The position numbers and the translations under genes are program-made. DNA of 64,000 nt from contig OZ316891.1 of NCBI GenBank assembly GCA_973895155.1, forward strand, positions 18,811,048-18,875,047, written 5' to 3'. Positions 1 to 64,000 of the stretch are shown piece by piece; positions within the stretch are counted from its first letter, which is position 1; each line of letters opens with the position of its first letter. Under the pieces are notes generated by a model. That model did not search any database. It was not told where the DNA came from and saw nothing but the letters and a program-made list of their open reading frames with translations. Source of the DNA: Marsupella aquatica (taxonomy: Eukaryota; Plantae; Marchantiophyta).

Positions 1-1519
1 TATGTGAACTGCCACAGTTGTGGAAACCAATTTTTGGCTATCGCAAGGAAAGCCTGAAGGGCCAACAGTTAACTAATCACCTTAACAATTTCCCCGTAAT
101 TTTAGGCACAAATCCACAAATACCAAAATCCCAAACATTACCATTGAAGAGAGTGGGCTGTGGGCTGCTACATTCAGGGTGATGGGTGACCAAGAATGAA
201 GGAAAAGGGATAGTTATATTTCATCGGACAAATGAGACTGTAACCATTGCCTTGTTGGATGGGTCAATGCTGCCGCCCTCCATTTTTGAAAATCCTGAAC
301 TGAGTCATATGACCATTACAGGATATACCATAAATGGGCATCTATAGGGGCGTCTTGCACAGGGTCTTGCACAGGGTCTTGCATGTCAAATGTCCTGAAA
401 ATTTGGCTCTAACCACTCCTACATTGTAAGTATAAAGCGCATCACAAAGCTTCACAGAATAGACTAAGAAAAGAGCTATTTTATTTGTTTTAATAGAAAT
501 TTAAAGGTTGGGACTTTCAATGGCCCTAAACTTTCCTGCCCTTGTCCTTGACTGTGCTCAAAATAATGCTGCTGTTAGGCCTACCTCAGGTGGGAGTTAA
601 GGTATAAATGTTACGTTCACTCATAGAGTGCTATCAGCTAACTGAAGGGCCAATTTTCTGAGGACCTTTTACATTCAAACAGCTTAGCTATAGCCCAGCC
701 TTGAGATGTTTGTAACTTATTAGTAAAGTGCAATTAGAAGCAACTTCCTTGGCTTATTATCTAGAGTGACTACTCTAGACTCTAACTCCAAGTGAGGGCA
801 TAACTGAAAGTGAAGGTGTACACAAAAAGTAAGGGTTGCAGACCAAAACCAGGAATAGGGGCAATGAGGAGCAAAAAATGGCATGGAATTCTTTTTTCTT
901 CAAAGGTTTTTTCACTCCTCATCTCCCAGTCAAAACGTTTCTCACTAGGCTCACTTTCTACAGTAAAGCCTCTACACCATGACTTTAAAGACATAACCCA
1001 AAGTGAGGGTGCACATAGGCAACAGGGATGGGGGCAAGATGAACAAGAAATAATAATAAAGAACTTTTCTTTGCAAGTTTTTGTTGTTGGGGTAATCAGG
1101 ATAGTGCATCAATTTTGAGAGCCCCTAATTTCGACATCCGCCACAGTATAGTACTGAAGATTTGTCGGTAGCAATGCTGTCTCGACGTGAATGTCAGTGT
1201 GGGTCCTAAAGACTGGTGATTGTATTTCCCCCCTCTTCCCTATTGCCATGTCGCTCGGGGAGAGCCGAGCAAACTGCCACATACTTGTCGCGGCTAGAAC
1301 CAGACTACTGTACGTTGCTAGTGAAGCTTTAGTGTTCAGTGACGAGAAAACAGCACAGCCATAGCGTCACCGAAAGAAAGGGAGCAAGAAAAGGCGAACG
1401 CGAGAAATCCGACTCTCGAGAACGGAGAGGAGAAAAAATCGTGCGGAGAGGAGCCCAGACAAGGAAGCAAGAGGCGAGGAGAGGAGAAGGCAGGGTTGTA
1501 TCGAAGGCACCGCCCATCG

Positions 1520-21861: not shown

Positions 21862-22612
21862 TGTTGATCAAAGACGACATCCACAACAGCATACTCATAA
21901 CTATTCAACGATCAAGTAGTCAATATAGAGAGATACGTGGTTTACCTCCACATGAGGCTACGTCCACGGGAACACACAAGAACTTTACTGCACTCTAGGT
22001 CGACCAACCATACAAGCATCCACAACACAAGCTCTCCTTATCTCTCAATTGGCTCCGTAACAATGAACTGGAGTGTTAATGTTGGGTATTTACTCTTACG
22101 TCTAGGTTAGGTATGACGTGGTTGGTACAACAACGTGGGTTGGTACAACTACGTGGTTAGGTATAACTACGTGATTAGGTACAACTATGTGGTTAGGTAC
22201 AACTACGTGATTAGGTACAACTATGTGGTTAGGTACAACTAAGTTGCACACTATATCATAAGAGGCATGTGTGCTTGGAGAGGTAGAACCAAGGCTCATT
22301 GTTATGGAGCCACTTGAGAGATAGGGAGAGCTTACACTGTGGAGACTCGGTATAGCCGACGGGCTTAGAGTTCAGTAAAGCTCTCTTGTGTGTTCCCGTG
22401 GACGTAGCCTCAAGGAGGTGAACCACGTATCTCTTGTGTCGACTATTGTGCGTTGGATGGTTCATGGGCTTGCCGTTGCGATCGTCGTCTATGCTCAACA
22501 GTTAAGGAGTTATAGAGTGTGCACAACATGACTAACCTAACCTAGTCTGCGACTAAGGTTAGCCCTAACTGCGGTACAATTGTAACTATAGACCTTAGAG
22601 TTAATCCTAATA
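21862..22612 (-). mobile_element. Older solo LTR (host of the nested LTR)
   Basis: Flanked by a TTGTG duplication (21857-21861 and 22613-22617). Ends are TGTTGA...CCTAATA (decayed TG...CA). 21862-22070 is the reverse complement of the 3' half of the inner LTR. Confidence 0.7.
22080..22500 (+). mobile_element. Solo LTR (421 bp) containing an 18-bp minisatellite
   Basis: Ends TGTTGGGTAT...ATGCTCAACA with a perfect GTTAA duplication (22075-22079 and 22501-22505). About 7 copies of acgtggttaggtacaact lie at ~22104-22240. Confidence 0.85.
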
Positions 22613-28500: not shown

Positions 28501-28892
28501 GCACTCGAGAGCGCTGACCCGATTCCTCCAAAAATGAAAGCGGCGACTGCACGCCATCCGAACTTGAGCTCGGGCCACTCTTGATTTTCTTCAGCTAATT
28601 GGAAAACTCCATGATAGAATTTGTGACAGAGTTGAAGCCAACCTTGTCCTTGGTCGTGTACCAACGATTCCATTTCAGAGCTTGAGGTAGTCGAATCGTC
28701 ATTGAACACTTTGAAGACGTTTTCCGAATCCAGACTAGTACTGTAGGCTTTTAATTCAACATTCGATGCTAGACCATAAGGGCTCCCAAATGTGGGCGCG
28801 TGCTCTGCATCTGAAACCTGGAGGAGTAAGTTCGTTATAGTGAGGCAGAAACACAACACCAAACAGAACCGCATCCACGACGACCCATTCAT
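25548..28892 (-). CDS. Sulfite exporter TauE/SafE family membrane protein, 4 exons
   Basis: Exons 28892-27825, 27382-27239, 26867-26724, 25856-25548. Motifs: SSAGGIGGGGLFVP, FDAKTSAVLSNFMILGGS, LVDFDVVMLLQPNMLLG, AGLLGGLLGIGGGMIINP, PQVTAGT, YMGFHYPC. Confidence 0.92.
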
Positions 28893-29958
28893 CCTGGCTA
28901 CCAAAATTCAGTCCTCGTCCTCTTTTCCGCATCAATCGAGTAGTAGGCGACTGATGTTTCCTTCAGTCGCGTGTTGAGCTCAAATTCCAGGAAACAATCG
29001 TCCTTCTTGACGTTCCTCCAGCGGTGCAGTGGTGGTCTCCTGGAACCGACTTGCTTTCCACGTAATTGAACTCTCCCCTGGATGAGAGCTACCGGTATGA
29101 TTGAATGATTACATTACTATTTCCGTCGACTGCTTCTGTGGTGGAGATGTGGCTCAGCAACCTTTGGGCTGACAATCCCAATCCGAAAACAAGTTCTCAC
29201 ATCCAGCTCGAACCAAATTGGTCGTTATTAACTTTGCCTGAGTGACTCTCTCCAATTGGGGTGAAGAGTGTCATTACCACTGTGGACCGCAAGTTCGATC
29301 ACACACCACAGTAGCTAGCTCCCTCAATTTCCACCTGTTCTTCACTAGAATTACAGATCCTCTGACCATTGAGGATTAGTTAATATCTGCTGTACTGCCG
29401 CAGGGATGCTTCTTCCTCAGCATCGTGCTGCCTTAGGACCTGTCGTTGCCTATCTTCGGTCTGCAATCAATACCTGACGAGCGACGGCCAGCCGCGGACC
29501 GAATTTCTTTTAAGTATTCTTTTCTCGTCACAGGATGTGTATCTGAGGTAGACTTATTATTGTACTTATTATATTTTATATCTACTATAAAATATAATCT
29601 GCTGACTTCCTCTATTATTAGCTACAGAAGTTTTTGGACGTGCTTTTGCTTTACTCAACAACTAGGAACAAGCTTCCCGATAATTGCACATCTAAATGCT
29701 CCAGCCGAATACCTAGAAGGAACAACTCTCACCCAGTAAAAGAATAATCAGGTTTATAGTATGAAAAATCTATTCAACCGGTGGGAGCTTGCATTATCAC
29801 ATAACACAGTAGACGATGTGCAATCATCCATATGGTGTACTATGCTATGGTCTGTAGTGTCTGAGGGAGCATGGTCTCCAACATTAGATGGCGCATCCAC
29901 TTGAACTTGTTTAGTCTATCGTTTAATGTGCTAGTGATGGTCTCATTGTGGTGTTCTA

Positions 29959-31312
29959 GGCATTCAAAGAGACGAGTCCCTGGAACAGCATTAACTGTAC
30001 CTCGGGGACTCCCCCAAAGCCTCCCGGAAGGAAATCCCTGAGTTTTCCCCTTTTTGCACCCGTCAGTTTTCAGGCCATGATCACACTCGCTGCCCCTGGC
30101 TCCCTCTCAATTAGAGACTTTCTCTCCCTCTCACTTAGAAACTTAATTTCATTCAACTTTCTTATCCTCACTTGTGTAGTGCCTTTTTCCCTTACATCTC
30201 TTTGTGGGAGTATTAGTTTAAATTTCTTGGACTCCATGGAGGGTTCTCGGGTATTGTCCCGGTATTGAAAATAAAACAAAATTGACAGTAGCTGACATTA
30301 TTTAAATTTCTTGGACTCCATGGAGGGTTCCGGGTATTGTCCCGGTTTTGAAAGAAAAAAAACTTGAATTCCATGGAGGCAATAGTTTGACAGTAGCTGA
30401 CATATTTTGACTCCCTTTGCAAAGTCTGGCCCCAGTCTAGTTTTAGTAGTTGATTTATGAGGGGTGGATTACTAAGTGAAAAATCACCTGAGCTCAAACT
30501 CTTGCCACTAAATTCTTCCCCAGTTCATCGTTGTATTCCATGCCTTCCAGACAGCCCATTTAAGTTAATGTATTGAGAAGATTCCAAATTTTACAAGAGG
30601 GAATTGCTGAACATAGATGTTTTGATTTCAAAACACTAAAGTTACAAAGCTAGGCACATTTATGAGCTAGGCATGAATGCATTGGTTACCCATCTGGAAG
30701 GCCTGAAATACAACGATGAACTGAGGAAGAATTTAGTGGCAAGAGTTTGAGCTCAGGTGATTTTCCACTGAATAATCAACCACTCATAAATTAATGACTA
30801 AAACTAGACTGTGGTAGGACTTTGCAAAGAGGGTCAAAATGTGTCAGCTATTGTCAAACTATTGCCTCCATGGAGTTCAAGTTTTTTGGTTTTTTTCAAA
30901 TCCGGGACAATACCCGGGAAACCTCCATGGAGTCCAAGAAATTTAAATAAAATTCCAGCTACTGTCAATTTTTATTTCTTTTCAAAACTGAGACAATACC
31001 CGAGAACCCTCCATGGAGTCCAAGAAATTTAAACTACTGTCAAAAGATTGCCTCCATGGAGTCCAAGAAATTTAAACTAACACTCACACAAAGAGATGCA
31101 AGGGAAAAAGGCACTACACAAGTGGGGATAAGAAAGTTGAATGAAGTTGTCTCAAATTGAGAGGGAGCCAGGGGCAGCGAATGTGGTCATGGACTGAAAA
31201 CTAAAGAGATGGGTGCAAAAAGAGGGAAACTCAGGGTGCTCCTTCCGGTAGGCTGTGGGAGAGTCCCGAGGTCAGTTAATGCTGTTCCAGGGACTCATCT
31301 CTTTGAATGTCC
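29959..31312. mobile_element. Non-autonomous foldback/MITE-like DNA transposon with ~600-bp inverted arms, TA target
   Basis: Left arm 29959-~30570 is the reverse complement of ~30680-31312 (GGCATTCAAAGAGACGAGTCCCTGGAACAGCATTAAC vs GTTAATGCTGTTCCAGGGACTCATCTCTTTGAATGTCC). TA on both sides. Internal repeats ccatggagtccaagaaatttaaa. Confidence 0.88.
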
Positions 31313-35814: not shown

Positions 35815-37259
35815 GAGGGATATGCTCAATAGACCCCCTCCAGCAGAAACTTTACTTGATCAGCCCCCTCATTATGGCCCGTACCCTTTTCCCCATGTAA
35901 GGCCCTTTTCCCCGTGTAAGGCCATACTGCACAGTTTTCAGCCTTATTCTATGACTTTTCAGAGTCCCCATTCAACAATGCAATAATCGGGCAAAAATCA
36001 CAGCGACTGTGCTAAGGTCGATTAGCAACGGGACCTCGTAATTAGAAGTCAAAATCGGGCATTTGCACATCCACGCCGCCACGATCAACATTAGGGTTAT
36101 GTTATGCTAATGCGAATACATTGACATGAATGTATTCTATTTGTAAACTGATCTCCGCATTTTTTAATATCCTCCCATCCCGACTTTTGTCCATGCTCGA
36201 TAACAACTACACTCAACATTCCACGAGGCGCACGACGTGGACACCCTTCCCGTGTGGTACTAAGCCATTTTTGTGGTAGCTTCAGTGGTCTTCAGATGCA
36301 ATCTAGCTTGAGGTAGCTTCAGATACAATGTAGCTTCATTGGAAGGCAAGGAGGCCCATGATACATCTAGACTGCAAGGTCACAACTCGACTTGCAACTT
36401 GTACTGGAAACATTTATTAATAAAAAGCAAGTTGCATTCATTATGTTCTGATGTATAAAAGTTATTCATTCTGCTGTCCGAGACTACCTTCAGTTTGCAC
36501 CTTCAGTTTTGGAAGACATCGTCCACATTGTCTTCACACCACACTTAGCAATTTTTCCAACGACAGGATATTCTGCTTCAAGAAGCCATTTGAGCAGGGG
36601 TAAATGGCCGATGTTGTGGGTTTTGGAAGACATCGTCCACATTGTCTTCGCACCACACTTAGCAATTTTTCCAACGACAGGATATTCTGCTTCGAGAAGC
36701 AATTTGAGCGGGGGTAAATGGCCAACACTAGTGGTTTCACACAAGATGCACATGAGAACTGCAAAACAGTTTCAAAATATGTATAACATCTCTTAAACCC
36801 TAAACTATCGTGCGCCTCATGGAAAGTTGAGTGTAGTTGTCATCGAGCATGGACACAAGCCGGGATGAGAGTATATTAAAAAATGCGGGAATCAGTTTAC
36901 AAATAGAATACACTCATGTCAATGTATTCGCATTAGCATAACATAACCCTAATGTTGATCGTGGCGGCATGGATGTTCAAATGCCCAATTTTGACTTCTA
37001 ATTACGAGGTCCCGTTGCTAATCGACCTTAGCACGGTCGCTGTGATTTTTGCCTGATTACTGCGTTGTTGGATGGGGATTGTGAAAAGTCATAGAATAAG
37101 GCTGAAAACTGTGCAGTATGGCCTTACACGGGGAAAAGGGCCTTACACGGGGGAAAAGGGTACGGGCCATAATGAGGGGGCTGATTGGGGCAAAAAAGTT
37201 TGGAGGGGGCTGATCAAGTAAAGTTTCTCCTGGAGGGGGTCTATTGAGCATATCCCTCC
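35815..37259. mobile_element. Mutator-like (MULE) non-autonomous element with ~420-bp TIRs and 9-bp TSD
   Basis: GTATGGCCC at 35806-35814 and 37260-37268. Arm 35815-~36235 is the reverse complement of ~36808-37258. G-starting long TIRs with a 9-bp TSD are typical of MULEs. Confidence 0.88.
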
Positions 37260-45550: not shown

Positions 45551-45948
45551 TGTTGGAAATGAGCCTCCCTTGTAGCAAGTGTGGCTCAAGGGAGGGTGTT
45601 GGAAATGAGCCTCACTCAACTGACGAGGGATGCAGGCATCAAGGGCCTGTAGCTCAGTGGTAGAGCACTATGATGTACACTGGAGGTACTAGGTTCAATT
45701 CCTAACCGGTCCATGCTGTTGACAATTCCAGCATGGTATCAGAGCCAAAGAACAGGAGTTTCCCTTGTAGCAAGTGTGGCTCAAGGGAGGGTGTTGGAAA
45801 TGAGCCTCACTCGAACTGATGAGGGATGCAGGCATCAAGGGCCTGTAGCTCAGTGGTAGATCACTATGATGTACACTGGAGGTCCTAGGTTCAATTCCTA
45901 GCCAATCGTTCAATTCCTAGCCGGTCCATGCTGTTGACAATTCCAGCA
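45551..45948 (+). mobile_element. TRIM (miniature LTR retrotransposon) with a tRNA-like cassette in each LTR
   Basis: CATAA duplication (45546-45550 and 45949-45953). LTRs TGTTGGAA...TTCCAGCA at 45597-45733 and 45792-45948. tRNA-iMet PBS TGGTATCAGAGCC at 45734 and PPT AAGGGAGGG before each LTR. A deleted extra unit occupies 45551-45596. Confidence 0.9.
45643..45713 (+). pseudogene. tRNA-derived sequence inside the TRIM LTR (second copy ~45839-45928); anticodon unassignable
   Basis: 71 nt. Acceptor stem GGGCCTG/CCGGTCC, D arm GCTC-AGTGGTA-GAGC, T arm CTAGG-TTCAATT-CCTA(A/G). A box TAGCTCAGTGG and B box GGTTCAATTCC are intact; the anticodon stem is mispaired with a 6-nt loop. Confidence 0.8.
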
Positions 45949-48584: not shown

Positions 48585-49147
48585 CACTAATAGAAAAAGA
48601 AAAGTCCACCTCACCTCCAGGACAGGTGAGAGGGGTGGGGAGGCATGCACCTTGGCTCCATGAATAGACCTGAAACCCAAAAGATACACCAAAAAAACAC
48701 CATCCTCAGGAACAGGAAAAAGTAGTGAGTTAAAAGCTAAAGCAAAAAACTGACCAAAAGAAATCAAATCCCACCTCTTTTGCACATCATACAACTCCTA
48801 CCCGTGCTCATATGTATGTTTCCTATGCCCGTTGCTGTAGTGAGGTATAGCTAGGATACCTATTATGTTTTTATAATGAGGGATCCCGCCTTTTTTCATC
48901 ATCCATCCCAATACAAAAAAGCTTCTGGAAAGATCCAGAGTTGTTGGATTCAATCGGCTGTTTTCTCTGACCATTGCTTGAGAAAATGTGCACCGTTGGT
49001 ACATATGTGCTTCTTGCTACCCCATAAATGTCCCGGCCCTACTCCCTATGAGCTGGCCCTATTTGTGTCGTGCAATGCACAGGCACATGGCTTGTTTGAC
49101 ATAATAATATGGTATAACCTGCACAGGTGCCACTATTCCTAGTAGTG
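48585..49147. mobile_element. Possible small non-autonomous CACTA element
   Basis: Ends CACTAATAGAAA ... TTCCTAGTAGTG. The 3-bp flanks AGT and TGT match only 2 of 3. Confidence 0.35.
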
Positions 49148-49526
49148 TGTCATACATAGGCCCCCTTTGGATATACTAGGGGAGAGTTGGCCCTCTCCCC
49201 TCTTTTCCTTCCCTTCATTGAGTTCCTTTGCCATTGGGATCATGTTCCTTTGCCATTGAACCCCAATTTAAGGAAAACCAAACTTTGGAAATTCCAAAAA
49301 TCACTAAATATTATTATTTTAATAAAAAGGGGGCGACATGACGCGTGGCTGTGCGTGAAACCCTGAAAATGACTGCAACGTCACATTTTAACCAATCCAA
49401 CTTGACGGGACCAAGAGACATGCTCACGCGAATAATAATAATAGAGAAATAAATCTTTGAGATCCTTTATATATGATAACCTGTATATAAGGAGTTTACA
49501 AATAGTTTCTAGAACGACAATACAAA

Positions 49527-50255
49527 TTAATCTGATCTCATGCCGACTATTATTTTGGAAGCGTCCAAAATTGGGCGTCTATTAAATTGCTCTACTAGAT
49601 ATCTATCTCCATGCCTCTGAATCACAGGGTCTTCCCATAGAGTATGATTATAATCATAATCTCTAAAAATAGATTTAACTGGCCAATCTGGATAATCTCT
49701 TCCATTGGCAATGACAAGCGGCTCACAAGAGTTTGCTAGCTTGCTAAGATACGGAATCAGCAAGTTAATCAGGAAACTGTCGTCGACCGACCCAAAATAT
49801 TTGGGCGGAAATAATGATCCAACAACAGGATCTAAACAAGCATGAAATGCATCGGATTCGATAAGCATTATATTTTGCTGCAGATACGCCTTTGTATAAA
49901 TTCCAACCTTCTCAAAACACTTCAAAAATATCCGCTTATTTGATGTCACCCAATCGCATAAGTAACAATGAGACTGATCCCAAATATACTTAAATGAGGC
50001 CATTTCCATCGCAGTCAAAATAGATGCTAAAATCTGATCTAAAAGGTTCTTCCCAAGAGAGGACCAGATCCCTACATCGAAATTCTCAAAATAGAATCTC
50101 AAGAATTTGTGAAGATGAGGCCTTGGAAAAATGTATATATTCCCAATCCGAATTCCAGTTGAGACCGCCATCAGTCGGGAATGCGGTGCAGTGTAACAGA
50201 GTAGATGCTCCATGTCTAAAACTATGAGCCCATTTTCTCTGCTGCAATGAATCTC
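49527..50255 (-). CDS. FCP1/NIF-like HAD domain exon 3 (open reading frame; candidate alternative last exon)
   Basis: Acceptor ctctacag|GAG (phase 0). Motifs LIVLDMEHLL, FPRPHLHKFL, FDVGIWSS, FKYIWDQSHC, FLK, NIMLIE. The DxDxT motif is degenerate. Confidence 0.7.
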   Translation of the reverse strand, partial: EIHCSRENGLIVLDMEHLLCYTAPHSRLMAVSTGIRIGNIYIFPRPHLHKFLRFYFENFDVGIWSSLGKNLLDQILASILTAMEMASFKYIWDQSHCYLCDWVTSNKRIFLKCFEKVGIYTKAYLQQNIMLIESDAFHACLDPVVGSLFPPKYFGSVDDSFLINLLIPYLSKLANSCEPLVIANGRDYPDWPVKSIFRDYDYNHTLWEDPVIQRHGDRYLVEQFNRRPILDASKIIVGMRSD

Positions 50256-50341
50256 CTGTAGAGAAACACAAGAAGATGCATGAGCCCGTATGAATGGAGT
50301 CATGCGAATGGTCGCGTCACATATTACAGAGACAACATCCT

Positions 50342-51049
50342 CTACACTCTGGCCATTGATAAGTGACGTCTATTGAAGTGCTTGATAAGAACTTGATCCG
50401 CATGTCTCTGCACATACAGATGCTCCCATATATCCTCGTTCAGATCCCAATCTTGATGTAGATTTCTAATCGACCAGATGGGATAATCGAACTTGTTAGC
50501 GAACGCAAGACAAAGCCCTGAATTTGATAGCTTTCATAAATATGGAATGAGGTCATCCCTCAAAAAGACATCATCCAACGATCCTTGAAACGACTTAGCG
50601 AACAATAATCCGCATACAGCTGTCTGGCATGTATGGGAAGGACAGGCATCAATCTGGATTATATTCTTTGGTCGATAATCTTGAAACATATCACGTAGTC
50701 TCTCGATAGATTTGAAGACAACAATCTTATAATTTTTCTTCACATAACCAAGATTCCAACAATGATCCCTCGTGAACACATATATCAGCTGCGACAGGTC
50801 GGTGCTCGACAACACCTCTGAAAGTATCTGATAAACCAGTTTATTGTCAAGAATAGACTAGACCATCACATCAAAATGATCATAACATAATTTTATAAGA
50901 TCATGAAGATGCAGCCTCAGAACGACACATAGAGATCCGATACGAATTCCAGGTGTCGACTTGAGCTGAGGAGTATATTTTGAAACAGAGCACAGGAAGT
51001 TTTCTAGTCCTAAAACTAGAAGTTGACGCGACCTGCTCCACTTAGACAC
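50342..51049 (-). pseudogene. FCP1/NIF-like HAD domain exon 2 with two in-frame stops
   Basis: Acceptor tttacag|GTG (phase 0). Reads through stops at ~50858 (VMV*S for VMVWS) and ~50534 (LIPYL*KL). Collinear with exon 3 (GIRIG, LIPYL.KL.NS, DYP.W, QRH.D, FNRR). Confidence 0.72.
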
Positions 51050-51174
51050 CTGTAAATGAACAATTTGATTCTCATATTATGCAATTGCAAACAACCACGC
51101 GACCGGGCGCGTCACTCCCAAAAGTTCAATTTCAATCAATTTATAAATAATAATTGATAATAAACAATAAATGT

Positions 51175-54100
51175 TTACTTATTGGACTTATCCCGGGCTT
51201 CTATAGCACGGTCTTTTTCGGCAGATAAGTATTTCATAAATTCGTCAAACTTTTCTAAATGGTCTTTATTCCCCTGATTACGAATGATCACATTTCTCCT
51301 CCAAAGATTTGTCTTATCAATATAATCTTTCTCAAGATTTTCTTGAGAGAACGTTGGAATCCCATATCCACTAAGGAGCTCGCGGAATGTCAACTTGTCA
51401 ATTGACATGTCGCATAGATATGGATATAGTTTCTTTCTAAAAAATAGGTCATCATCGAGCCCAGAATATGCATCGGGATACAGCGATGAATAGAAATCAT
51501 TAAGGCTTGTCTTATATGCAGCGTCATCGATAAGAATGACATTCTCGATGTTGTAATCTTTAATATCGGCGGCAATGTCCAAGAGACATTTGACAAATAA
51601 GGGGATGTCATTATTATTCTTCCCAATAAGTCGAGTTGATTCTTGTCCCCATATAAATTTAATACGTTTCAAAACTTCGGGTCTTAGTATCAGCCTTACA
51701 CAAGATAGAATATTCCATTTGAACATGCACGACCAGATCACAATGTCGTATAGATCTTCCACCTTCTCAAGAAATTCCATTAAATCAGGCCTTGGATAGA
51801 TAACCTTGTGCATCTGTCTCACACCCCTTGACCGAATGGGCATCCCAGGGCTGATCTTCTTTGACCAGATAAGTACCCGATTCAGATCAAAAATTACAAG
51901 TCTCTTATGAACCGGTGACTTCTTTGCCGATGGATTAGGCGCCATCTGTACGTGTGATTTTTGTGCCGCAGGGTTTGGAGAACGGACTAGAACGGTCTGT
52001 TTGTTTCCCGCCTCCGGACGATCACCAGACTTTCGGACTGGTGCCTTCGATACTTGATCAGGGGGTTTCGGGATAGGCTTCTGTAAAACATTAAGAAATG
52101 AAAATAAGTTTATAATGCGAACGGTCGCGTGACTACAAAGAGAGACACTGAAATGAAGTGTATTACCTGTACAAGACGGTCGTTCAGTGCTGGAATTCTG
52201 CCAGAAATGTCAATCATAGTAGCACGGATCCCGGTAACTAGGTTACTTATGGATGTCGGCTTGCGGAAGTCCATGTCAAATAACGACAAGACTATCTCCC
52301 TACAGAATTTCTCAATTTGATCCGCGGCAAAATTAATTTCATTTCCTTGACACAAGCACTTGGCGTATCTCAAGATAAACACACCACAACTGTGGCTGTC
52401 ACTCTGGTGAGGAATATCAATCCGATATATCCGTTCCCAACCTGAGAGATCCAAGTTGACACCAGTTCTCCAGCCAATTTCGTCGGCGTAGTACTTCCCA
52501 ACAATATCTAGCACCCCAGGATTTTGTCGATTATGAACTAGAGAATCTAGGTACTCCAGCCGTTTCTCCTTCGGATACAAGACTACCAATGACCAATGTT
52601 CTTTCACAGCATTGTGTACTGGAAAGACTTGTTTGTCGTAATCACTGATTTTTAGCGGAAACTCCTTTGTCCAAGCTGCTCTCTCCTCGTCGAAAATGGT
52701 AGGATCCATGGAGAGAAGCTCAAAATGGTGTGTTTGGAAGAATTTGACAAGGTCTGACTTTCCAACTCTATCGAGAATCAGTTCGAAAAAACTCAAATAA
52801 CCGTTAATTATATCATCGGTGAGCAACTCGCGCGGTCTCAGACACATCATATGTTTCCTCTTGAATGAGTGTTGTAAGAACTTGGTCAATTAGCTCTTCC
52901 ATATCCTTAGAAGGATCAAGGCATTGATCTATTTGACTAGCCAAATTTTCAAAAAACTGCAAAAAACAGAGATTTCAGTACGCCTTCAAATAACGTACTG
53001 AGGTTGTAGCCTAAGGGTTCTACCTCAGAAAACAGAAACAATAACAAATCAATAATAAAATAATGACGTCTATAATAGAAACTTTAAGCTTATAGCTTGC
53101 GAATGACCTTTGGATTGGGTGGATCCAGCCTTTTCGCAGCTGATCTCTTGGGTGCCTCAATCGCAACAACATCCTTCAGCCCTCCTCGAGACCGTAGTGA
53201 TCGCTCCACCAGACCAGTTTGCGAAGGTTGGAGCGATGAGGCGGGAAAACCTTCAAATGGTTATGGCATTTGATTCAAATATTCCACAATCTGGGAATCC
53301 GATTCCAAAATATCCGGTGCCACAATTTCTGCGCGAGTGACCTCTGCAATATATCGAGGTCGAGACCACGAACCCGGTCGCGTCAAGTCAGCTGTTAGTC
53401 TCTTAACGACTTGAGCCGAGTCTGGTGCCAAAAATGTTCCCAGGTCTTGCACTCGATTCTCGGAAAAGTGGACATTATTGATGATTGTCTCCATTCTGGA
53501 TGCAGTGGCAGTCTTCTCCTCGGTAATCAAAAGACTCTTCCAATATTGCAAAGCAAGGACTGCCTGGACTCGGAGCTGCTCCGATGAATATTTATTCCAA
53601 TCATCCAACGAGACCGTACTTAAGGGTGGATCATTAAATTCAAACTCTGGGCGAAGAAAATAGTCTAATATTTTCTTCTTAACTGCAACTGAGGGTGAAG
53701 AAGGCTTCTTCAAATTCAGCCTTATTTTTGGTAGACGTTGTGCCTCAGGAATAAGCGAAAGATCCTTGGCCCTCTCGGCCTCCTTCCTCGCTGCCTCCAG
53801 TCTTCCGGCTTCTTCTCTCTCCAGTCTTGCGGAATCAACCTTTTCCGCCTCCAACTTCTCCGCCTCCACCCTCTCCGGTCTTGCGGTCTTGTCCGCCATC
53901 CTCTCGGCCAGCAGCCTCTCAGCCGCCACACTCTCCGCCTTGGCCCTATTTCCCTCTGTCACTAAAAGGACTCTCGCAGCCTCCACTTTCTTAGCCTGGG
54001 CTTTCTCAGCCTCCGCGTTCTCGGCCTGGGCTTTCTCCGCCTGGGCTTTCTCAGCAAGGACTCTCGCAGCCTCCGCTTTCTCAGCCTCCGCGTTCTCGGC

Positions 54101-57100
54101 CTGGGCTTTCTTAGCCTCCGCTTTCTCAGCCTCCGCTTTCTTAGCCTGGGCTTTCTCAGCCTCCGCTTTCTCAGCCTCCGCTTTCTCAGCCTCCGCTTTC
54201 TCAGCCTGGGCTTTCTTAGCCTCCGCTTTCTCAGCCTGGGCTTTCTCAGCCTGGGCTTTCTCGGCATCCGCTTTCTCAGCCTGGGCTTTCTCAGCCTGGG
54301 CATTCTCAGCCTCGGCTTTCTCCTTCTTCTTCGCGGCAGTTGCTTTTCTAGCTGCTGCCTTTTTCTTCTTAACCTCCTTCTTTTGAAGCTCCTCTTGCCG
54401 GGCCGCCTCTTGTCGGGACGCCTCCTCCTGCCGGGCCGCCTCCTTCTTTTGAAGCTCCTCTTGCCGGGCCGCTTCCTTCTTTTGAAGCTCCTCTTGCCGG
54501 GCCGCCTCCTGCTGGGCCTCCTCCAGCCTGGCCTCCTCCTGCCGGACCGCCTCCAGCCTGGCCTCCTCCTGCCGGGCCGCCTCCTGCCAGGCCTCCTCCT
54601 GCCGGGCCGCCTCCTCTCTGGCCTCCTCCTGCCGGGCCGCCTCCTCTCCGTCCACCTCATGTCGAGGCTCCTGTGTGGCCTCTTCATCAGAGTCCTCAGC
54701 GTCCTCAGAACCCTCCATCTCCTCGCCCTCTTCATTAGCGTCCTCAGCGTCCTTCATCTCCTCTCCGTCACTCTCTTCATCTCCTCTATTGTCGGAATCT
54801 CCGATGTCGTTCTGCGTATCGGTCATCCACTTTGGATCTTGGTCATTGACATCCCCATCCGTGTCACCTTCCGCGTCACCTTCCCCCTCGCCATCCGCAT
54901 CACCATTGCTCCCTGCATCCTCAACATTGAAGCCGCAGTCGACTTGATCTGAATAAAATCAGATCATTTGATAAGAATGACTCACGCGCATATTCGCGTG
55001 AAAAGAAATGTTATGAATGTCCACGCGCATATTCGCATGACGCAATAAAAAGTAAGAGGTTTCAAAAGTAACTTACCTTGGATTGGCCCACTAGGGTACT
55101 CCATTGGTCGAATGTACAATCGATCGGAATCTTTAGAGAGTGCATACTCTTGCAATAATTGATTACAAATATTATCAGGGATATGTTGTTCGTGGAGGAC
55201 ATCCAAAACATCAGCCCTGAGAGCAGTTACGGATGGACGGTACTTCATTAATTTATCTATACATTTTTCTATACTAGCCCGTACTGGGTCAATCAATGAC
55301 AGCGTTGTATCAATTGTCGCCGTGGTGTGTTGCAAGAAACAAGACAACTCCCTATGCGTTGCCACAGGGCAGTAATATTTTACATTGGATCCAGCATCCT
55401 GTAAAAAAAGCCGAAATTAGTTCACAATATTAATTGAGAATATAATAATCTAAATAATCTTAAAATCGAAACCCCAAAATATAAATCTCAAAACTTACCA
55501 TTAAGCACTGGATCAAGTTTGTTCCCTCACCGAAGCATATAGCCCATTCCCCACATTGGACGAATTGACTAACAATACTTTCAAAGAATGGAAGTGTCTT
55601 TTCTGGGGAAGGTGTCATGAACTCGCTGCTCTCTTCAAAATTGGCTATCTTCTCAATATGATATTTGGAGACCAATTGGAACTCGAGGGCTTGTGGATCG
55701 CCCATTGTGCTGAAGGCCAAGCTGTGAAAAGCGTAGGTTACAATAAGCTTCTTCTCCTTCGGCCGCTTCTGAATATAATGGCTATCGATAGCAACGTAGT
55801 GTGTACTTCCCTAATTCCCGTTTGATTAAGTAAGACTCAATGGGAGAGGCTACAATAATAACCATATGGTGTGGTTTTGCCCCTATCTCGCTAGTAGCAC
55901 GAAATAACCCCTCATAGAATGAGCAATTTGGCGGACGCAAATCTCCCATTGATGAGGGATCAAAATAAATCAAGCTCGCAAGGTTCTTGTCTTCACGTAT
56001 GATACAGTCTGCAAACCCAACATTTTGTATATCCTGCAGGGATCGCAATTTCAGCCTCTCACCGACCGGCCGCACTAGTTGGTTTCCTTGACTATCAACT
56101 GATTTCTGTATTCCTTCCACCAACCTGTAGAATATAGGGTCGATCTCCTTCAACAAATTATCATTACTAATATTTACATTTAAGCACTTCTTCAGATAAC
56201 CACTCAACGCATCTCTCAACTGCTTCAGCACCATCTTGTCGAGCTTAAAGCGATCAATCATTCCTTTAACCCGCAATTTCTGCGCTGAATCTGTCAGACT
56301 TTTAAGCTCCGTCCGGGTGGATGTATCCCCGTTGAGTTTACTCAATAATAAAATATCAAACTCAACTTCCGTCTTCTTCTTTATACATAATTGCTCCAAA
56401 CTCATGCTGGTCGTTGACAACACTGGAGCCTCAGAGGACTTCCTCGCCTTCCTAGATTTCACTTTGATACTTCGGTTTTTGAGTATAGACAGTCTTCCGC
56501 TCAACATATATTCCGCTGCCTTTCGAAGAACCGAGTCTGAGCACCCTTGACAAGAACGGAACGTCTTCTTCAGAAGATGATAAGCACATGGATTATCCGC
56601 AATTTTGACGGCGTCCCTCTGTAAAATTCCGTTGTAAATTACAAGCTCTCCTGTCCTTGATAGTTCGTAGACCTCCATCCACTTCTTGAATATTTCGTCC
56701 TCCATTGTAAAGAGAAACGGAGCCAATTCTCCAAATTTCATCATTTTGTTCTTCCCCATTTGAGCCCATGGGCAAACAAAACTCGTAGCTCTCATAAATA
56801 CCTGAAAAACAATGGAAACATGACAATTCTAAGCTTGACGCGACCATTCGCGTGACAAAAGTTTAAACGATAATGTGATCGAAGAGGGATATTTATATAC
56901 CTTCCAATTTGGATGATGATAATGTGATCCAGGCCGCCCAAATGAGTTCCAAATATTACGACACTGTCGTACAATGGTGAGAAACTGTCCTTCTTCCATT
57001 GATGTTTGATGACAGTGGTTCAGAGCTTTCGATAATCCCATCAAATAAACATTATTGTCGTTGTTGAGCGTTGCCCAAAACATTACAGCTTCTACAGTAC

Positions 57101-58143
57101 CGCAAGTGTCTCGTACAACTTGGCTGACTTTGTCGTCCTCTCTCAGCAATTTGTACGCCATTATTGTGTGCTGGCCTCCGAGTATCCAGAAATGACTGGT
57201 CATAATGTCCTCCTCCTTTGGCGATGAATCGTAGGGCGTCTCATTGTAGTCGGGATCTCTGTCGGCCTCCGACTAAACCCACTTCACAGGGACTAAAAAG
57301 CAGCATTGCTTCTTGAACTTTATAGCCAAATGAGAGAGGAGTGAATTCTTTAGCCTATCTATGTAATCCTGATTCCACTCTCGGCACTTGATGTGGTCCG
57401 GTGCAAGATGACAACGTGATGTCTCAACAAAAAATGACTTGCTGTTAAATATATTCACAGCACTATATTCTTTGAGGAAAGAATCGAACAGAGCCCCTCC
57501 ATTCGCTGAGGTAATTACTTTCGGAAGATTCTCCGCCGAGTATACTTCAACCTTGCTCACTGGCGGGGCCTTTCCCAAGCGAAATCCCTGGTTGAAAGGA
57601 ACTCTCTGGAACTCAAGTATGTCAATAATGTATTGACAAATCAAATCTCCCGTTGATCCCTCTGGATCGGAAGGATATCCCACACTAGTAACCTTTTCCA
57701 AGGCGTGCCTTGCACCTAGAAGATCATCGATTCTGGGCTGATTGAAGGTTACATATTGCGTTCGATCCAAATAAATGCTTATTTTGTCTTCCTGCTGGTC
57801 GTCGCTAACTAGCAGAACCAATCCCTCTGTACACTCTTTAACTTTCATGTTCTTCTCAAAGAAACACCCACCCGAGAATTTTTGATCTCTCCAAAACTGT
57901 AGCTTTATCATTTCTTGCCACCACAAGACAGACAGCCCCATTGCGAACGACTATTCCAAAATCGGATATCTCAGTCGATTCAAAGAGATGGATACTCTTC
58001 GTCTCTATTGTTCTCTCTCTGATTGACTTTCCTTGATATGCAAGTATGGATGTCTCCGCGGGAGTCATTTTTGTCTTGGTTTTCTTACGAGAAGCAGCTT
58101 TAGACGAGTCTCTTTTCCGCTTTGAGGTTCCGGTAGGATCCAT
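51175..58143 (-). pseudogene. Large spliced TE-like gene (~2,100 aa): ParB/Srx-like, degenerate N4/N6 DNA methyltransferase-like, acidic and coiled-coil repeats, Ulp1/C48 protease, FCP1/NIF HAD
   Basis: Phase-compatible GT-AG exons: 58143-56901, 56801-55499, 55398-55077, 54948-53108, 52956-52167, 52080-51175. Motifs: REWNQDYIDRLKNSL...FWILGGQHT; LIYFDPS...PEKTLPFFESIVSQFVQCGEWAICFGEGT; CLRPRELLTDDIIN...HWSL...YLDSL...QSDSHSCGVF; VIFDLN...RPDL...IWS...LIDD. In-frame stops at 57273 and 53261; frameshifts near 57860, 55800 and 52890. Confidence 0.72.
53990..54650 (-). repeat. Coding minisatellites (15-bp AEKAQ/AEKAE and 21-bp EEAARQE units) predicting a long charged helix
   Basis: Repeats gctttctcagcctcc / gctttctcagcctgg and gccgggccgcctcct within ORF 53261-54826. 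Confidence 0.85.
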
Positions 58144-58217
58144 TCTGAAATAGACAAATATTGAAAGTTAAACGTTTATTATAAAATACTAACACGCGCA
58201 TGGTCGCGTCGTGCCGA

Positions 58218-58740
58218 ATTACATTTTAGGAACATTTATCCTGACCCAATCTTCTCGCTCATCTTCATCTAACCAAAACCAAAGGTTCCTAAACATGTCA
58301 AGTTCAGATCCTTCAAATCCACCCAGAATGTCCAGCGGCGGGAGAGTTCTGATGGATTCTGTAAATCTTAATGCTACACTCAGTGAAGTCAAATGCCTTC
58401 AAAGCGATTCATATCCTGGTCTATCAGTGAAGTCGTAAGCTACCAAGGTGACCGTCGCCCAAGTACTACTATAAGTAACTATGTGGCACCACTTCTTACT
58501 GACTGTTCGAATGGCGATCAAGTCCATGACCCGATTTTTAATCGCAGTATCCGACAAATTCCCAAGATAGTGGAAAAACTCTTTGACTAATGGCCAAATA
58601 TATTTCTCGACAATATCGTCCGGAAAACCGGGTATCAGGTCTTCAGCTTGACTCCATATCATGTTTCGGTTGATAACCTTTGCACGTGCAATGCGCTCCA
58701 TCATCATTTGATGATGAGATTTTCGATTCATGTCAAAGGA
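58218..58740 (-). pseudogene. F-box-like ORF 2 (one in-frame stop)
   Basis: LIPGFPDDIVEKYIWP...LIAIRTVSKKWCHIV; acceptor ctgcag at 58741. Reads through TGA at 58399 to WLDEDERED...PKM*. Confidence 0.6.
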
Positions 58741-58783
58741 CTGCAGCATAATATGGAAAAGATTAAGAACAAGAACCTATCCA

Positions 58784-59242
58784 TTAAGAACTGGGACCAC
58801 CGAGATTATGAGAAAATCTACCAAACCTTTTGATTAGGACATCTCGTTCTTCCTCATCTAAATTGTTATATTTGTTCGTAGAGAGAGACTCATTTCCGAT
58901 CGGTTTAGTAGGATTTCCTGGGAAAGCCAAATCTAATAAACTCAACTTGATTACACCCAGATGATAGGTATTCCCAACAAGGTGGCGCCATCTGCGACAC
59001 ACCGAAGATAGTCCTACAAACTCATCCAATTCCTTTATTGAGAAATTTCCTGCATTAGCCGAGGAATTAAAAGTCTCCTTGATCCGAGGCCATATCAATT
59101 CCGCGACAATGAAATTTGGAAGTCCAGGTAGTAGTGTTTCAACAAATATAGAATATCCCGCCAGTAGACCATCTTGGCTTCTGTCCAAAACATCAAATAT
59201 TGGGCATAGATATCTGAAGCTCTCCAGACCAGGTTTGCCCAT
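58784..59242 (-). CDS. F-box-like ORF 1
   Basis: LLPGLPNFIVAELIWP...LSSVCRRWRHLV; paralogous to ORF 2 (LDEEERD vs LDEDERE). The 5' end is uncertain. Confidence 0.55.
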   Translation of the reverse strand: MGKPGLESFRYLCPIFDVLDRSQDGLLAGYSIFVETLLPGLPNFIVAELIWPRIKETFNSSANAGNFSIKELDEFVGLSSVCRRWRHLVGNTYHLGVIKLSLLDLAFPGNPTKPIGNESLSTNKYNNLDEEERDVLIKRFGRFSHNLGGPSS

Positions 59243-59365
59243 GACTCTTTTCAGCCAAATGATATATCCCAGAGATTATTTTCTACAAATCAGAATGTAT
59301 AAACAATTCTTTGAGAGACTGATTTTTTCGAGTCACAACATGATAAATCATAAATGTTGCTTCGT

Positions 59366-61380
59366 CCTCTAACAGAACCAGTCAATGAGAGAGCTACCTC
59401 AGACGCGAATGGTCGCGTCAACTGCCCCTAAATGAAACCTTACCTCCTCTAACAGAACTAGTCAATGAGAGATCTACCTCAGATGCGACTAGTCGCGTCA
59501 ACTGGTCCTAAAAGGAACTTTACCTCCTCTAACAGAACCAGTTAATGAGAGAGCTACCTAAGACGCGACTGGTCGCGTCACCTGAACCTAAACAACTATA
59601 TCCACTGAACCTTCCTTGTGGAGATTTGGATATGGTACGCGCTCAGTAAATCTATCCAGTTTCCTTCTCACACGCGACTGGTCGCATCAACTGGTCCTAA
59701 AAGGAACCTTACCTCCTATAACAGAACCAGTCAATGAGAGAGCTATCTCAGACGCGATTGGTCGCGTCACCTGAACCTAAACAACTATATCCAGTGAACC
59801 TTCATTGTGGAGATTTGGATATGGTACGCGCTCAGTAAATCTATCCAGTTTCCTTCTCACACGCGATTGGTTGCGTCAACTAGTCCTAAAAGGAACCTTA
59901 CCTCCTCTAACAGAACCAGTCAATGAGAGAGCTACCTCAGACGCGACTGGTCGCGTCAACTGGTCCTAAAAGGAACCTTACCTCCTCTAACAGAACCAGT
60001 CAATGAGAGAGCTACCTCAGACGCGATTGGTCGCGTCAACTGAACCTAAACAACTATATTCACTGAACCTTCCTTGTGGACATTTGGATATGGTACGCGC
60101 TTAGTAAATCTATCATGTTTCCTTCTGACACGCGACTGGTCGCGTCAACTGGTCCTAAAAGGAACCTTACCTCCTCTAACAGAACCAGTCAATGAGGGAG
60201 CTACCGCAGACGCGACTGGTCGCGTCAACTGGTCCTAAAAGGAACCTTACCTCCTCTAACAGAACCAGTCAATGAGAGAGCTACCTCAGACGCGACTGGT
60301 CGCGTCAACTGAACCTAAACAACTATATTCACTGAACCTTCCTTGTGGACATTTGGATATGGTACGCGCTTAGTAAATCTATCATGTTTCCTTCTGACAC
60401 GCGACTGGTCGCGTCAACTGGTCCTAAAAGGAACCTTACCTCCTTTAACAGAACCAGTCAATGAGGGAGCTACCGCAGACGCGACTGGTCGCGTCAACTG
60501 AACCTAAAAGGAACCTTACCTCCTCTAACAGAACTAGTCAATGAGAGAGCTATCTCAGACGTGACTGGTTGCGTCAACTGAACCTAAACAACTATATCCA
60601 CTGAACCTTCCTTGTGGAGATTTGGATATGGTACGCGCTCAGTAAATCTATCCTGTTTCCTTCTGACACGTGACTGGTCGCGTCAACTGGTCCTAAAAGG
60701 AACCTTACCTCCTCTAACAAAACCAGTCAATGAGAGAGCTACCTGACGCGACTGGTCGCGTCAACTGAACCTAAACAACTATATCCACTAAACCTTCCTT
60801 GTGGAGATTTGGATATGGTACGCGCTCAGTAAATCTATCCAGTTTCCTTCTGACACGAGACTGGTCGTGTCAACTGGTCCTAAAAGGAACCTTACCTCCT
60901 CTAACAGAACCAGTCAATGAGAGAGCTACCTCAGACGTGACTGGTCTCGTCAACTGAACCTAAAAGGAACCTTACCTCCTCTAACAGAACCAGTCAATGA
61001 GAGAGCTATCTCAGACATGACTGGTCGCGTCAACTGAACCTAAACAACTATATCCACTGAACCTTCCTTGTGGAGATTTGGATATGATACGCGCTTAGTA
61101 AATCTATCATGTTTCCTTCTGACACGCGACTGGTCGCGTCAACTGGTCCTAAAAGGAACCTTACCTCCTCTAACAGAACCAGTCAATGAGATAGCTACTT
61201 GACGCGACTGGTCGCGTCAACTGAACCTAAACAACTATATCCACTGAACCTTCCTTGTGGAGATTTGGATATGGTACGCGCTCAGTAAATCTATCCAGTT
61301 TCCTTCTCACACGCGACTGGTCGCGTCAACTGGTCCTAAAAGGAACCTCACAATATTTTCACGCGACTGGTCGCGTCAAC
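59366..61380. repeat. Higher-order tandem array of 80-bp (A, about 14) and ~110-bp (B, about 8) units, each carrying the palindrome GACGCGAC-TG-GTCGCGTC
   Basis: Order approximately AAAB AB AAB AAB AAB AB AAB AB plus a terminal palindrome at ~61360; about 23 palindromes. Confidence 0.92.
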
Positions 61381-62339
61381 AGCTCAAACAACTTTTGGAC
61401 AATAGGATAATACAGTGATACAACTGTGATTACTGACTCGTACGGACAAGGAAATCCGAGTAAGCATGATTTCATTCATTTGTATTCATTCATTTGTATT
61501 CATTCATGAACTTTACAATAATTCAGATGTTTGAGCTCTGTCATTGTGAAACTATTATATATCAAAAGTTTAGAGAATGATCCAGCTAAGATGATTCAAT
61601 TTAGCAGTCTACTGGTTGTATTCGTCAATTAAAGGATTCAGTGTAATGAGATTCATATAACATGAGAGTTTATATGATTAAATTCACAGCGTGCAAGTTT
61701 GTAATGACTTACTTAAGACGATTCAGGTTGTATTTTAATTAGTGAGTTTGTATGATTCACACATATTTGAGTTTACAAACAAACCGCATTATGAAAACTC
61801 AGCTTAACAATCAAGAGAAATTTTAGCAAACCACAATCAACACCAGCAGAAAATGTAGAAATTGCACCTGAATTCTGAAAAATTGATGTACTCGTCTGAG
61901 AGATTGACGTCCAAGCACTTGAAGACCTTGTTGCGGCATTCCAGAAAGTAAATATAAGATTGAAGATATTAATATGCTAAGCAACAACAACACAGCTTCT
62001 ATACTTCTATACATAGAGCTTCGCTGCCACCAATTGAATAACATGTGCTTAATGCTAAGGAGCTCATTATGTCGAGTTAAAAAGACTCTTTCAGAAGTAC
62101 AATCAAAGCTGTGGATAGGCAAACTGAGCATGAATAAAAGCGCACTAAACCTGAAGATTCAAAGAGGTGAAACAAACCTGAATGCTGATGGAAGGAGCTG
62201 AAACAAGCTGCCAAAAAGTAGTTCGAGCTGCTGAAACACATTGATCGAGTTGATATGAGCTTAAAATTGGCTGACACGAGCTGATACAAGCACTCCCAAA
62301 AAGCTAGCTGCAATGAACTAGCAAACTAGAAGTGAATAC

Positions 62340-62545
62340 GAGCTGTAAATGCGAGCTGCAATGCGCCAACGAGCTCCTAGTCGAAACGATGGACAACTAC
62401 TAAGAGCTGCAACGCGCCGTCAAGCACCTGACCACAACGAACGAGCTGCAATGCGCCAACGAGCTCCTGGTTGAAACGATGGACAACTACTAAGAGCTGC
62501 AACGCGCCGACAAGCACCTGACCACAATGAACGAGCTGCAACGAC
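62340..62545. repeat. ~91-bp tandem repeat near the putative 5' end of the element
   Basis: gagctgcaatgcgccaacgagctcc...aaacgatggacaactactaagagctgcaacgcgcc.caagcacctgaccacaa occurs twice, plus scattered gagctg motifs. Confidence 0.75.
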
Positions 62546-62884
62546 AAAAATGAAATCCAGGGCAGGAGCGAGAGCGAGAGCGACGAGAGCAGGCGCGCGA
62601 AAGTCTAGGGAGCGAGAAACAACAACAATGAACAGTGAACTCGAGACCGCGGGCGCCGACACTAAGGAAGGACTAATTAGGGTATTGTTTTAGCATAACC
62701 CTAATAACAGCCTAGCGACAAGAAGGTTCCAGATGATCTCCGTACAGTCCACCATCGACTGAACAAACTATGCAATCGTGAGAAAAAGATTACCGGATTC
62801 CTTTTGATTTGCCGTACTAAAGGAGATTTCTATTTGATCGCCAATTTGAAATTTAAACCGGTAATTATGCAACTGCGAAAGATT

Positions 62885-63125
62885 GTTAGTGGGGACCCCC
62901 GGATCCGGATCCGGATCCGTATCTTCACTATATCTGCCAATTCAAATCCAAAATGTGAACGAACGACAACTTTCTCACGATCGTTCCATCACGTAGTGGA
63001 GGCGAATTTCAAAATCATTCCATTTTGGTAGTGGAGACCGTCGGATCCGGATCCGTACTCCACTCTCTATCTTGCCAATTCAAACCCAAACTCTAAACAA
63101 CGTAAAACGATTCTCACGGTCGGGG
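62885..63125. repeat. ~140-bp imperfect duplication with GGATCC repeats and ttctcacg motifs
   Basis: tagtgg.gacc...ggatccggatccgta...tgccaattcaaa...ttctcacg at ~62887 and ~63029. Confidence 0.65.
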
Positions 63126-64000
63126 AGAACCGATATTCAAAATCAATCCTGTACAATGATTCTCACGACTGGAGACTCAACCAATTTTCAAAATCAAAAT
63201 CGAGTCCAGATGAACACATCCTCCATGGAGTCAATAGACTGATCTCATTGCTCACGGATCATTCTTCATTTTCAGTTTCTCCTGACCAGGATACTAGCTG
63301 GGCTCTCAGCGGAGGCTGATCCAAGGCACATTTGAGGTGGAGCAGATTGGATCATTCGACTATTCCTGCCGGAGGCGGAGCTCATTCAAGCAACGCTGGC
63401 GCAGTTCTTGTTGTATCACCTTCAATCTTGGGGAGAGCACATCCGATCAAGCGGGAGAGTTGCGACGAAGCGAGACGACAAACATTTAGAACCTCCATAG
63501 TCTGCCTCATTCATCGAAGCATTCTAGCGGACCAACAAAGAGCGGCTATTCTGAAATCACAGTCTGGTCGAGGATTTTGATCTTGATACGATCAACAAGT
63601 TATCATTCTCTGGTGGTGGGATTCGATCACGATACTCAAGGAAATTGGAGTTCGAAGGAGGAGGCTTAGTTGGCTGGGACGAGGAGGCTACGCTGGAAGG
63701 AAGAGGCTTGGCTAGGAGGAGGGTTTCCGCCAACATCGAAGGGTTGCCGCCAACATTGCTGAGACCACACGCAACTGAATAACTTGTAAGTATCAATCAG
63801 CATTAATTCCGCAATGAAGGAGGAGAGTAGTTGCCTTAAATCACGCATTCAATGCATGAATTGAGTCAATGAAGTTATGGTCCAATTTCTCACTCCAATT
63901 TTGATCAATCCATTTTTCAAGTCCAATACAGAAGCAATGTATCAGAAGTACTAGTAGAGGATCCGAATGAATTCTCTAGTCTAAAATTGTATGGCGTACG

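Follow-up and report, generated by a model that had tools for sequence, protein, structure and literature searches.

What kind of gene joins a ParB-like fold to what may be the remains of a methyltransferase in a liverwort, and could its product recognise the CG-rich palindrome that lies beside it? The question is raised by 64,000 nucleotides of contig OZ316891.1 of Marsupella aquatica (the window, whose positions are used throughout). The initial annotation described 55380..57450 as a ParB/Srx-like domain followed by a degenerate beta-class amino-methyltransferase (MTase)-like domain, borne by a transposable element, probably inactive, descended from a prokaryotic ParB-MTase module and perhaps repurposed to bind the palindrome. 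The answer favoured here, at a probability of about one half, is a high-copy repeat, likely a giant DNA transposon, of which the locus carries a damaged copy. The long spliced gene of this element would encode a protein that likely binds the palindrome, and whose Ulp1 protease domain would counter silencing.

The palindrome, the gene and the element

The palindrome is a 20-bp CG-rich sequence, of which repeat analysis finds 23 copies in a tandem array of 80-, 187-, 189- and 269-bp units. A matrix built solely from the array copies, applied at a score cut-off of 6 or more, gives eight matches in the gene span, seven of them in introns (six of the eight introns) and one in coding sequence. Introns make up 7.5% of the gene span yet hold seven of the eight matches (p ~1e-7), and no match at this score occurs in the 49,258-base flank. 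The proposed tie between gene and palindrome is borne out by this distribution, and the presence of one motif in both the non-coding array and the introns of an element is the layout of VANC-type systems. A further weak match lies at 62581, and the palindrome was not found in viral contigs.

Every stretch quoted in the initial annotation is real and lies on the minus strand, as pieces of a spliced eukaryotic gene: WNQDYIDRLKNSL and CFLVP before 57276, FWILGGQHTIMA at 57191-57156 in a ParB Box II-like region, LIYFDPSS at 55973-55950, PEKTLPFF at 55606-55583, AICFGEGT at 55543-55520 and DAGSNV at 55398-55381. With eight GT-AG introns the reading spans an F-box-like exon (58776) to 49530, and is interrupted by eight point breaks, namely stops at 58401, 57275, 53263, 50860 and 50536 and frame breaks near 57870, 55798 and 52890. 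From the Met at 58143 the polyprotein would measure ~2,130 aa if it stops after the first NIF domain and ~2,600 aa with all three, in the order PH-like, ParB/Srx, helical, MTase-like, acidic/EAK repeats, Ulp1 protease and three NIF domains. The gene thus reaches far past 55380-57450 in both directions, and the module first described is part of an Ulp1 and NIF polyprotein. Its two halves stand, but an intron (56900-56802) divides them; similarly, LM and DAGSNV, which had been read as one stretch, are both present but are separated by an intron at 55498-55399. The features are as follows.

49259..64000, no strand: high-copy mobile element, 14.7 kb or more; its left end lies near 49259 and its right end past the window edge
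59365..61385, no strand: tandem array carrying the palindrome
58787..59275, minus: F-box-like open reading frame (ORF) 1 (Pfam F-box E 0.02, below cut-off; 33% identical to F-box-like 2, E 7e-13)
58223..58776, minus: F-box-like exon 2 (Pfam F-box E 0.004, below cut-off; stop 58401-58399; predicted in-frame splice to the next exon)
58145..58222, minus: intron 0 (GT-AG, boundaries predicted), palindrome copy at 58192
56901..58144, minus: exon 1, with basic N-terminus, PH-like region (~58000-57610) and ParB/Srx; frame break near 57870; in-frame stop 57275-57273 inside the ParB part
56901..57450, minus: predicted ParB/Srx-fold domain, Box II-like GGQHT at 57191-57156, without arginine
56802..56900, minus: intron 1, between the ParB and MTase-like halves, palindrome copy at 56836
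55499..56801, minus: exon 2, most of the MTase-like domain preceded by a helical region; frame break at 55798; relatives P0027 and P0028
55330..56055, minus: putative degenerate beta-class amino-MTase-like domain, motif IV site DPSS at 55961-55950, motif X/I site at 55606-55520, split by intron 2
55399..55498, minus: intron 2, without palindrome
54949..55076, minus: intron 3, two palindrome copies (54982, 55021)
53108..54948, minus: exon 4, acidic tract and 15-bp EAK/EEAARQ repeats (likely a coiled linker); stop 53263-53261, which differs in sister copies
52167..52956, minus: exon 5, Ulp1/C48 protease with His/Asp/Cys motifs kept (Pfam Peptidase_C48 E 4.7e-17); frame break at 52890
52081..52166, minus: intron 5, palindrome copy at 52113
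51179..52080, minus: NIF/FCP1-like domain 1, DLNRV (Pfam NIF E 1.1e-9)
51033..51178, minus: intron 6 (uncertain acceptor; alternatively a spacer between two genes), palindrome copy at 51095
50348..51032, minus: NIF-like domain 2, GLENF (Pfam NIF E 3.1e-8); two stops, both at sites that differ in sister copies
50256..50347, minus: intron 7, palindrome copy at 50300
49530..50255, minus: NIF-like domain 3, DMEHL (Pfam NIF E 5.5e-14)

Exon and intron boundaries were mostly drawn from reading frames and GT-AG dinucleotides, with relatives backing two of the introns. Intron 1 agrees with relatives whose ORFs end at the same point and with P0033, a protein annotated in the liverwort Calypogeia fissa that shares 33% identity over 511 aa and is spliced there, and intron 2 with P0027, P0029 and P0030, all of which reach a donor-like VS at the same point. 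The acceptor of intron 6 is weak, so that the last two NIF domains may form a separate gene. An F-box-like paralog pair (58402-59275) lies immediately downstream of the palindrome array, and its second member can join the ParB gene by an in-frame splice.

That the module is borne by a repeat is supported by contig depth in public sequencing runs. The main contigs of run X1 stay at ~370-700 through to 64000, against 16.6 for the unique flank; the element is thus 20-40 times as deep as the flank, contig depth being distinct from copy number. Loose ends joined to other flanks occur at 49259 in runs X5 and X6, while X6, labelled with the species of X2, has hardly any coverage of the element. The repeat is probably a giant DNA transposon and is likely of plant origin, a liverwort relative and the style of the introns both pointing to an early land plant. 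At least seven of the eight breaks differ in high-depth sister contigs, the 58401 stop not being among the differences listed (the best 40 of 755 and the best 40 of 117), and 72 of the 112 differing places in run X1 are transitions of the kind expected if this copy had lost methylated cytosines, suggesting that this copy is decaying whereas the family is mostly open. The observed/expected CpG ratio is 0.86 in the element and 0.56 in the flank. The left end near 49259 does not start with CA or TGT, which the available part of one account gives as the termini of EnSpm-like and Plavaka elements (PMC12730594).

Folds and catalytic motifs of the polyprotein

Relatives of the ParB region were sought by HMMER without a profile, which returned 17 matches, 16 of them true relatives (P0017 was excluded as a false match to a repeat protein). 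Pfam by itself offers only ParBc_2 at E 0.14 for this region. The closest view of its fold comes from an AlphaFold model of P0002, 35% identical to exon 1 over 418 aa, in which a 19-row alignment gave a confident ParB part (predicted local distance difference test, pLDDT, ~72-95). Compared with 48,161 solved chains, the model has ParB/Srx-fold proteins in all of its top eight rows (Z 5.5-8.6), the best being PadC (Z 8.6, root-mean-square deviation 3.1, 99 aligned), KorB (8.3) and SerK (7.7). Foldseek with the same model lists phage ParB-like proteins at E 6e-4 and 8e-4 and bacterial ParB in the PDB at E 6e-3. The domain at 56901..57450 is therefore predicted to have a ParB/Srx fold, and the region before it, which matches many PH-fold chains at a middling Z of ~5, a PH-like one.

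The fold that had been proposed is thus supported by the model, but the claimed 'GxHR' box is not there: it reads GGQHT, with Thr in place of Arg. Box II is GGQHT or DGQHS (GQH-T/S) in the window and in all 13 relatives that cover the motif, six further matches beginning past it, and the arginine has been lost. Because changing this arginine to Ala abolishes NTP binding in the ParB fold, according to the available part of one report (PMC12704722), a classic CTP clamp is unlikely here. No ParA was found in the window by Pfam scans, the element being incomplete there.

For the MTase-like domain the nearest relatives are P0027 (452 aa, 56% identical) and P0028 (47%), and the more distant P0029 and P0030 share their layout. 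P0027 reads through the 55798 break in one frame, and at that site the high-depth contigs depart from the window sequence, so the frameshift noted near 55800 is genuine. Active beta-class MTases carry a catalytic (D/N/S)PP(Y/F/W) and a glycine-rich loop for S-adenosylmethionine (SAM), neither of which is present. In the close sequences motif IV reads DPSS, DCSV and DSTL, and in the distant pair it cannot be aligned; motif I takes the forms FGEGT, FSEGK, FGGSK and FGGTK. It had been suggested to check whether relatives retain DPP(Y/W): none of the four keeps DPPY or SPPY, so the domain is likely dead across the family and not merely broken in this copy. Enzymatic activity accordingly appears unlikely from these motifs. 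The catalytic degeneracy first described is therefore supported.

Whether the domain descends from beta-class MTases was approached by profile comparison with an alignment of E. coli YhdJ and 29 non-redundant sequences out of 68 full-length ORFs from 75 viral loci. In whole-domain profile-profile comparisons only the motif X/I stretch aligned (P 0.029 with five rows, 0.0031 with the distant pair), and none of 20 shuffles reached either value. With the domain split into halves, which were chosen after the fact, four of six local comparisons gave P <0.03: LIYFDP was aligned on LIFADPPY (P 0.006, 0 of 15 shuffles), and the motif X/I half gave P 0.025, or 1.4e-4 for the distant relatives, motif IV preceding X/I as in the beta order. 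A hidden Markov model (HMM) of the distant pair ranks beta MTases above 56 decoy genes (area under the curve, AUC, 0.69, p 0.002). The low-confidence Atlas model of P0029 (residues 720-922) has a PF01555 cluster as its best row by query template-modelling (TM) score, at 0.41, under the bar. The P0027 model has a pLDDT <50 over residues 266-452; fold searches with it listed no MTase, which excludes nothing as the model is too poor. Beta-class ancestry is weakly supported by these matches and is judged probable overall. The profile and structure searches that had been called for thus recover the ParB fold (Z up to 8.6) but no confident match to PF01555.

Searches for relatives elsewhere yielded little. 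A search for longer proteins carrying the ParB part gave no match among 1,240 candidates, and a metagenome scan of 39 stretches gave two loci, one an antisense chance match (L001) and the other a decayed fragment (L002). No relative of the protein was found in viral contigs; tblastn against phages returned none for P0029 and, for P0027, four records at E 2-5. Sequence searches of the PDB brought up no relevant entry, and an Atlas search by features gave no usable match. The descent from a prokaryotic ParB-MTase module agrees with the fold and the domain order, but with no prokaryotic or phage sequence relative it is an inference from those two features.

The remaining enzymatic domains differ in their state of preservation. 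Ulp1/C48 proteases use a His-Asp-Cys triad, and exon 5, besides its Pfam match, carries EHWSL, YLDSL and QSDSHSCG. NIF/FCP1 phosphatases have DxDx(T/V) as their catalytic motif; all three NIF domains pass Pfam yet lack it, with DLNRV, GLENF and DMEHL instead. The polyprotein would thus combine three kinds of degenerate enzyme with one apparently intact protease. As a separate observation, the three tandem NIF/FCP1-like domains, with motif sites at 51900-51871, 51022-50993 and 50228-50199, could serve as decoys for phosphorylated substrates.

A proposed mechanism and its alternatives

The most likely role of the polyprotein is an accessory one, in which it would dock on the element that encodes it. 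For a ParB-derived protein a dimer-type palindrome would be a suitable site, with binding through the predicted ParB fold and the helical region, and the likely dead MTase-like domain could act as a reader of the CG pairs in the palindrome. The Ulp1 protease, once brought onto the element, would strip SUMO from silencing factors there, the array and intron palindromes likely acting as landing sites that would help the element to escape silencing. Binding of the 20-bp palindrome by the polyprotein is judged somewhat better than an even bet, and anti-silencing as the outcome slightly worse than one.

Related arrangements are known, and the comparisons that follow draw on the available portions of the cited accounts. 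Giant red-algal Plavaka (EnSpm/CACTA-type) transposons carry a ParB-like gene, PAG3, beside tandem inverted repeats, and self-binding has been proposed for it (10.1101/2025.02.11.637652). As with PAG3 and PAG2, the present element combines a ParB-like domain on a giant repeat near inverted-repeat arrays with an N6/N4-MTase-like domain, and 7BNR is a top structural match for both PAG3 and the present ParB domain. In Plavaka, however, ParB is fused to a 2-oxoglutarate (2OG) oxygenase and the MTase, a clear PF01555, to SET in a second gene, whereas here ParB and the degenerate MTase-like domain share one protein with Ulp1 and NIF; PAG3 is compared here by description. VANC binds motifs in arrays and introns of Arabidopsis VANDAL elements, which are Mutator-like elements without terminal inverted repeats (PMC5735166), and anti-silencing versions of Kaonashi carry a Ulp1 domain (PMC13317346). 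The present element resembles these in having an element-specific motif in tandem arrays and introns and an accessory protein with Ulp1. The VANC motif, by contrast, is a 9-base non-palindromic sequence, no ParB or MTase domain is described in the portions available, and anti-silencing was demonstrated for VANC and Kaonashi whereas here it is a proposal.

Fusions of ParB with N6_N4_Mtase are known in phages (PMC12704722, PMC4738411), and share with the present protein the order of ParB followed by a beta-class MTase-like domain and the ParB fold match. The present protein differs from them in that no sequence similarity was detected, the Box II Arg and DPPY are lost, and the gene is spliced within a eukaryotic polyprotein. 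The Marchantia MpDN4MT1a/b enzymes have a proposed beta-class ancestry and an early land-plant setting in common with the present domain, beside which they are set by description; they keep TSPPY and are active, and ParB is not mentioned in the available part of their account (10.1101/2021.02.12.428880). The link drawn earlier to that 4mC (N4-methylcytosine) enzyme is not supported. In the literature searched, mostly the main text of open-access papers (the supplements of the red-algal preprint could list plant homologs), no account of this land-plant family or domain combination was found.

Arabidopsis VANDAL elements are the one case in which sequence-specific self-protection has been shown; for red-algal Plavaka it has been proposed, as far as the available text of the latter account goes (10.1101/2025.02.11.637652). 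A young, largely intact family with a sharply defined 20-bp site and a single candidate protein would open this idea to testing in another plant lineage. It would also illustrate the reuse of bacterial ParB and methyltransferase folds as readers, and a new programmable epigenetic targeting module could come of it. A broader version, in which a prokaryote-derived, ParB/parS-like self-recognition system in giant transposons of early land plants uses three dead enzyme types (a ParB lacking its nucleotide arginine, a methyltransferase converted to a CG reader and three pseudo-phosphatases) to dock on the palindrome and deliver a live SUMO protease, as an independent invention of anti-silencing, is doubtful.

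Several points weigh against the favoured reading. The case for binding and anti-silencing rests on sequence and models. Introns other than 1 and 2, including intron 0, are placed by frames and GT-AG, and the contigs are short and do not demonstrate a single copy intact end to end. The host gene TauE has a CpG ratio of 0.92, and a young repeat may be undepleted through age alone. The MTase-like region has no sequence match to an MTase in Pfam, NCBIfam, PHROG or the PDB, the beta-MTase HMM scores the window gene at E 0.1, an HMM of the close subfamily fails to rank beta MTases over decoys (AUC 0.50), and two of the six local and five of the six global half-domain comparisons failed. Model-based fold searches gave no clear match, and no recognised helix-turn-helix, in the helical region following ParB. 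Pfam scans and 24 short ORFs at ends and gaps revealed no transposase within the window, so another element gene could own the palindrome.

This last point leads to an unlikely alternative, that the palindrome is the site of another element protein, for example a transposase beyond 64000, and that the polyprotein modulates chromatin or SUMO in an accessory role without reading the palindrome. The element does continue past the window edge, the models resolved no DNA-binding fold beyond the ParB domain, and ParB lacks the clamp-type arginine; against this, the array lies directly upstream of the polyprotein gene, copies occur in its introns, and the layout is that of PAG3 and VANC. Similarly unlikely is the suggestion that the second domain is not MTase-derived and that its motifs arose by chance in a generic alpha/beta domain, which would be compatible with the rest of the favoured reading. 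The missing library match, the AUC of 0.50 and a best hhalign probability of 6% for the window's subfamily all speak for it. Both halves nevertheless align unprompted at the expected motifs, in beta order and at the P values given above, the P0029 model has its best, sub-threshold row in PF01555, and fusions of ParB with N6_N4_Mtase are common in phages (PMC12704722). The ancestry first proposed thus keeps weak profile matches at the expected motifs, but no library match.

It is improbable that the domain is an active MTase with a rebuilt active site, marking the CGCG sites of the element with 4mC or N6-methyladenine (6mA). The motif IV Asp is kept in all three close sequences, eukaryotic 4mC enzymes exist (10.1101/2021.02.12.428880) and red-algal PAG2 is a transposon-borne PF01555 MTase (10.1101/2025.02.11.637652), both from partly available sources. 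The loss of DPPY or SPPY from all four relatives, the free variation of motif I and, in the window, the absence of a terminal acidic residue from the strand after motif I argue against it, and importance as a working 4mC/6mA enzyme is very unlikely. A virus-like or episomal unit, in which ParB and the palindrome would genuinely partition or tether extrachromosomal copies, is slightly less probable still: giant-virus ParB-like folds appear among the Foldseek rows and large viruses also carry Ulp1, F-box and phosphatase-like cargo, but the gene has eight spliceosomal-type introns, no relative was found in viral contigs or phage records, and no viral hallmark or ParA in the window.

Neighbouring features of the window

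At the left end of the element a piece of a separate repeat family (48872-49245) abuts it, with loose ends at 48872 and 49245. This repeat contains a hairpin with a 9-bp stem beside CTAG (~49176-49199, z -3.3), which was considered as a Helitron end and set aside since it lies outside the 49259 boundary, in the separate repeat. Within the element, a 90-bp tandem duplication and short GGATCC runs occupy 62352-62541 and 62880-63060, where no protein family was found. Elsewhere in the window, host genes are represented by a GYF_2 domain exon (1343-3276) and a TauE/SafE transporter (27810-28907). An 18-bp tandem array flanked by 29-bp perfect inverted repeats lies at 21953-22412, and two long inverted-repeat elements, foldback or similar to miniature inverted-repeat transposable elements, with arms 83-98% complementary, lie at 29961-31309 and 35815-37258. 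Two 90-bp copies at 45618-45903 are tRNA-like by eye and are possibly heads of short interspersed nuclear elements.

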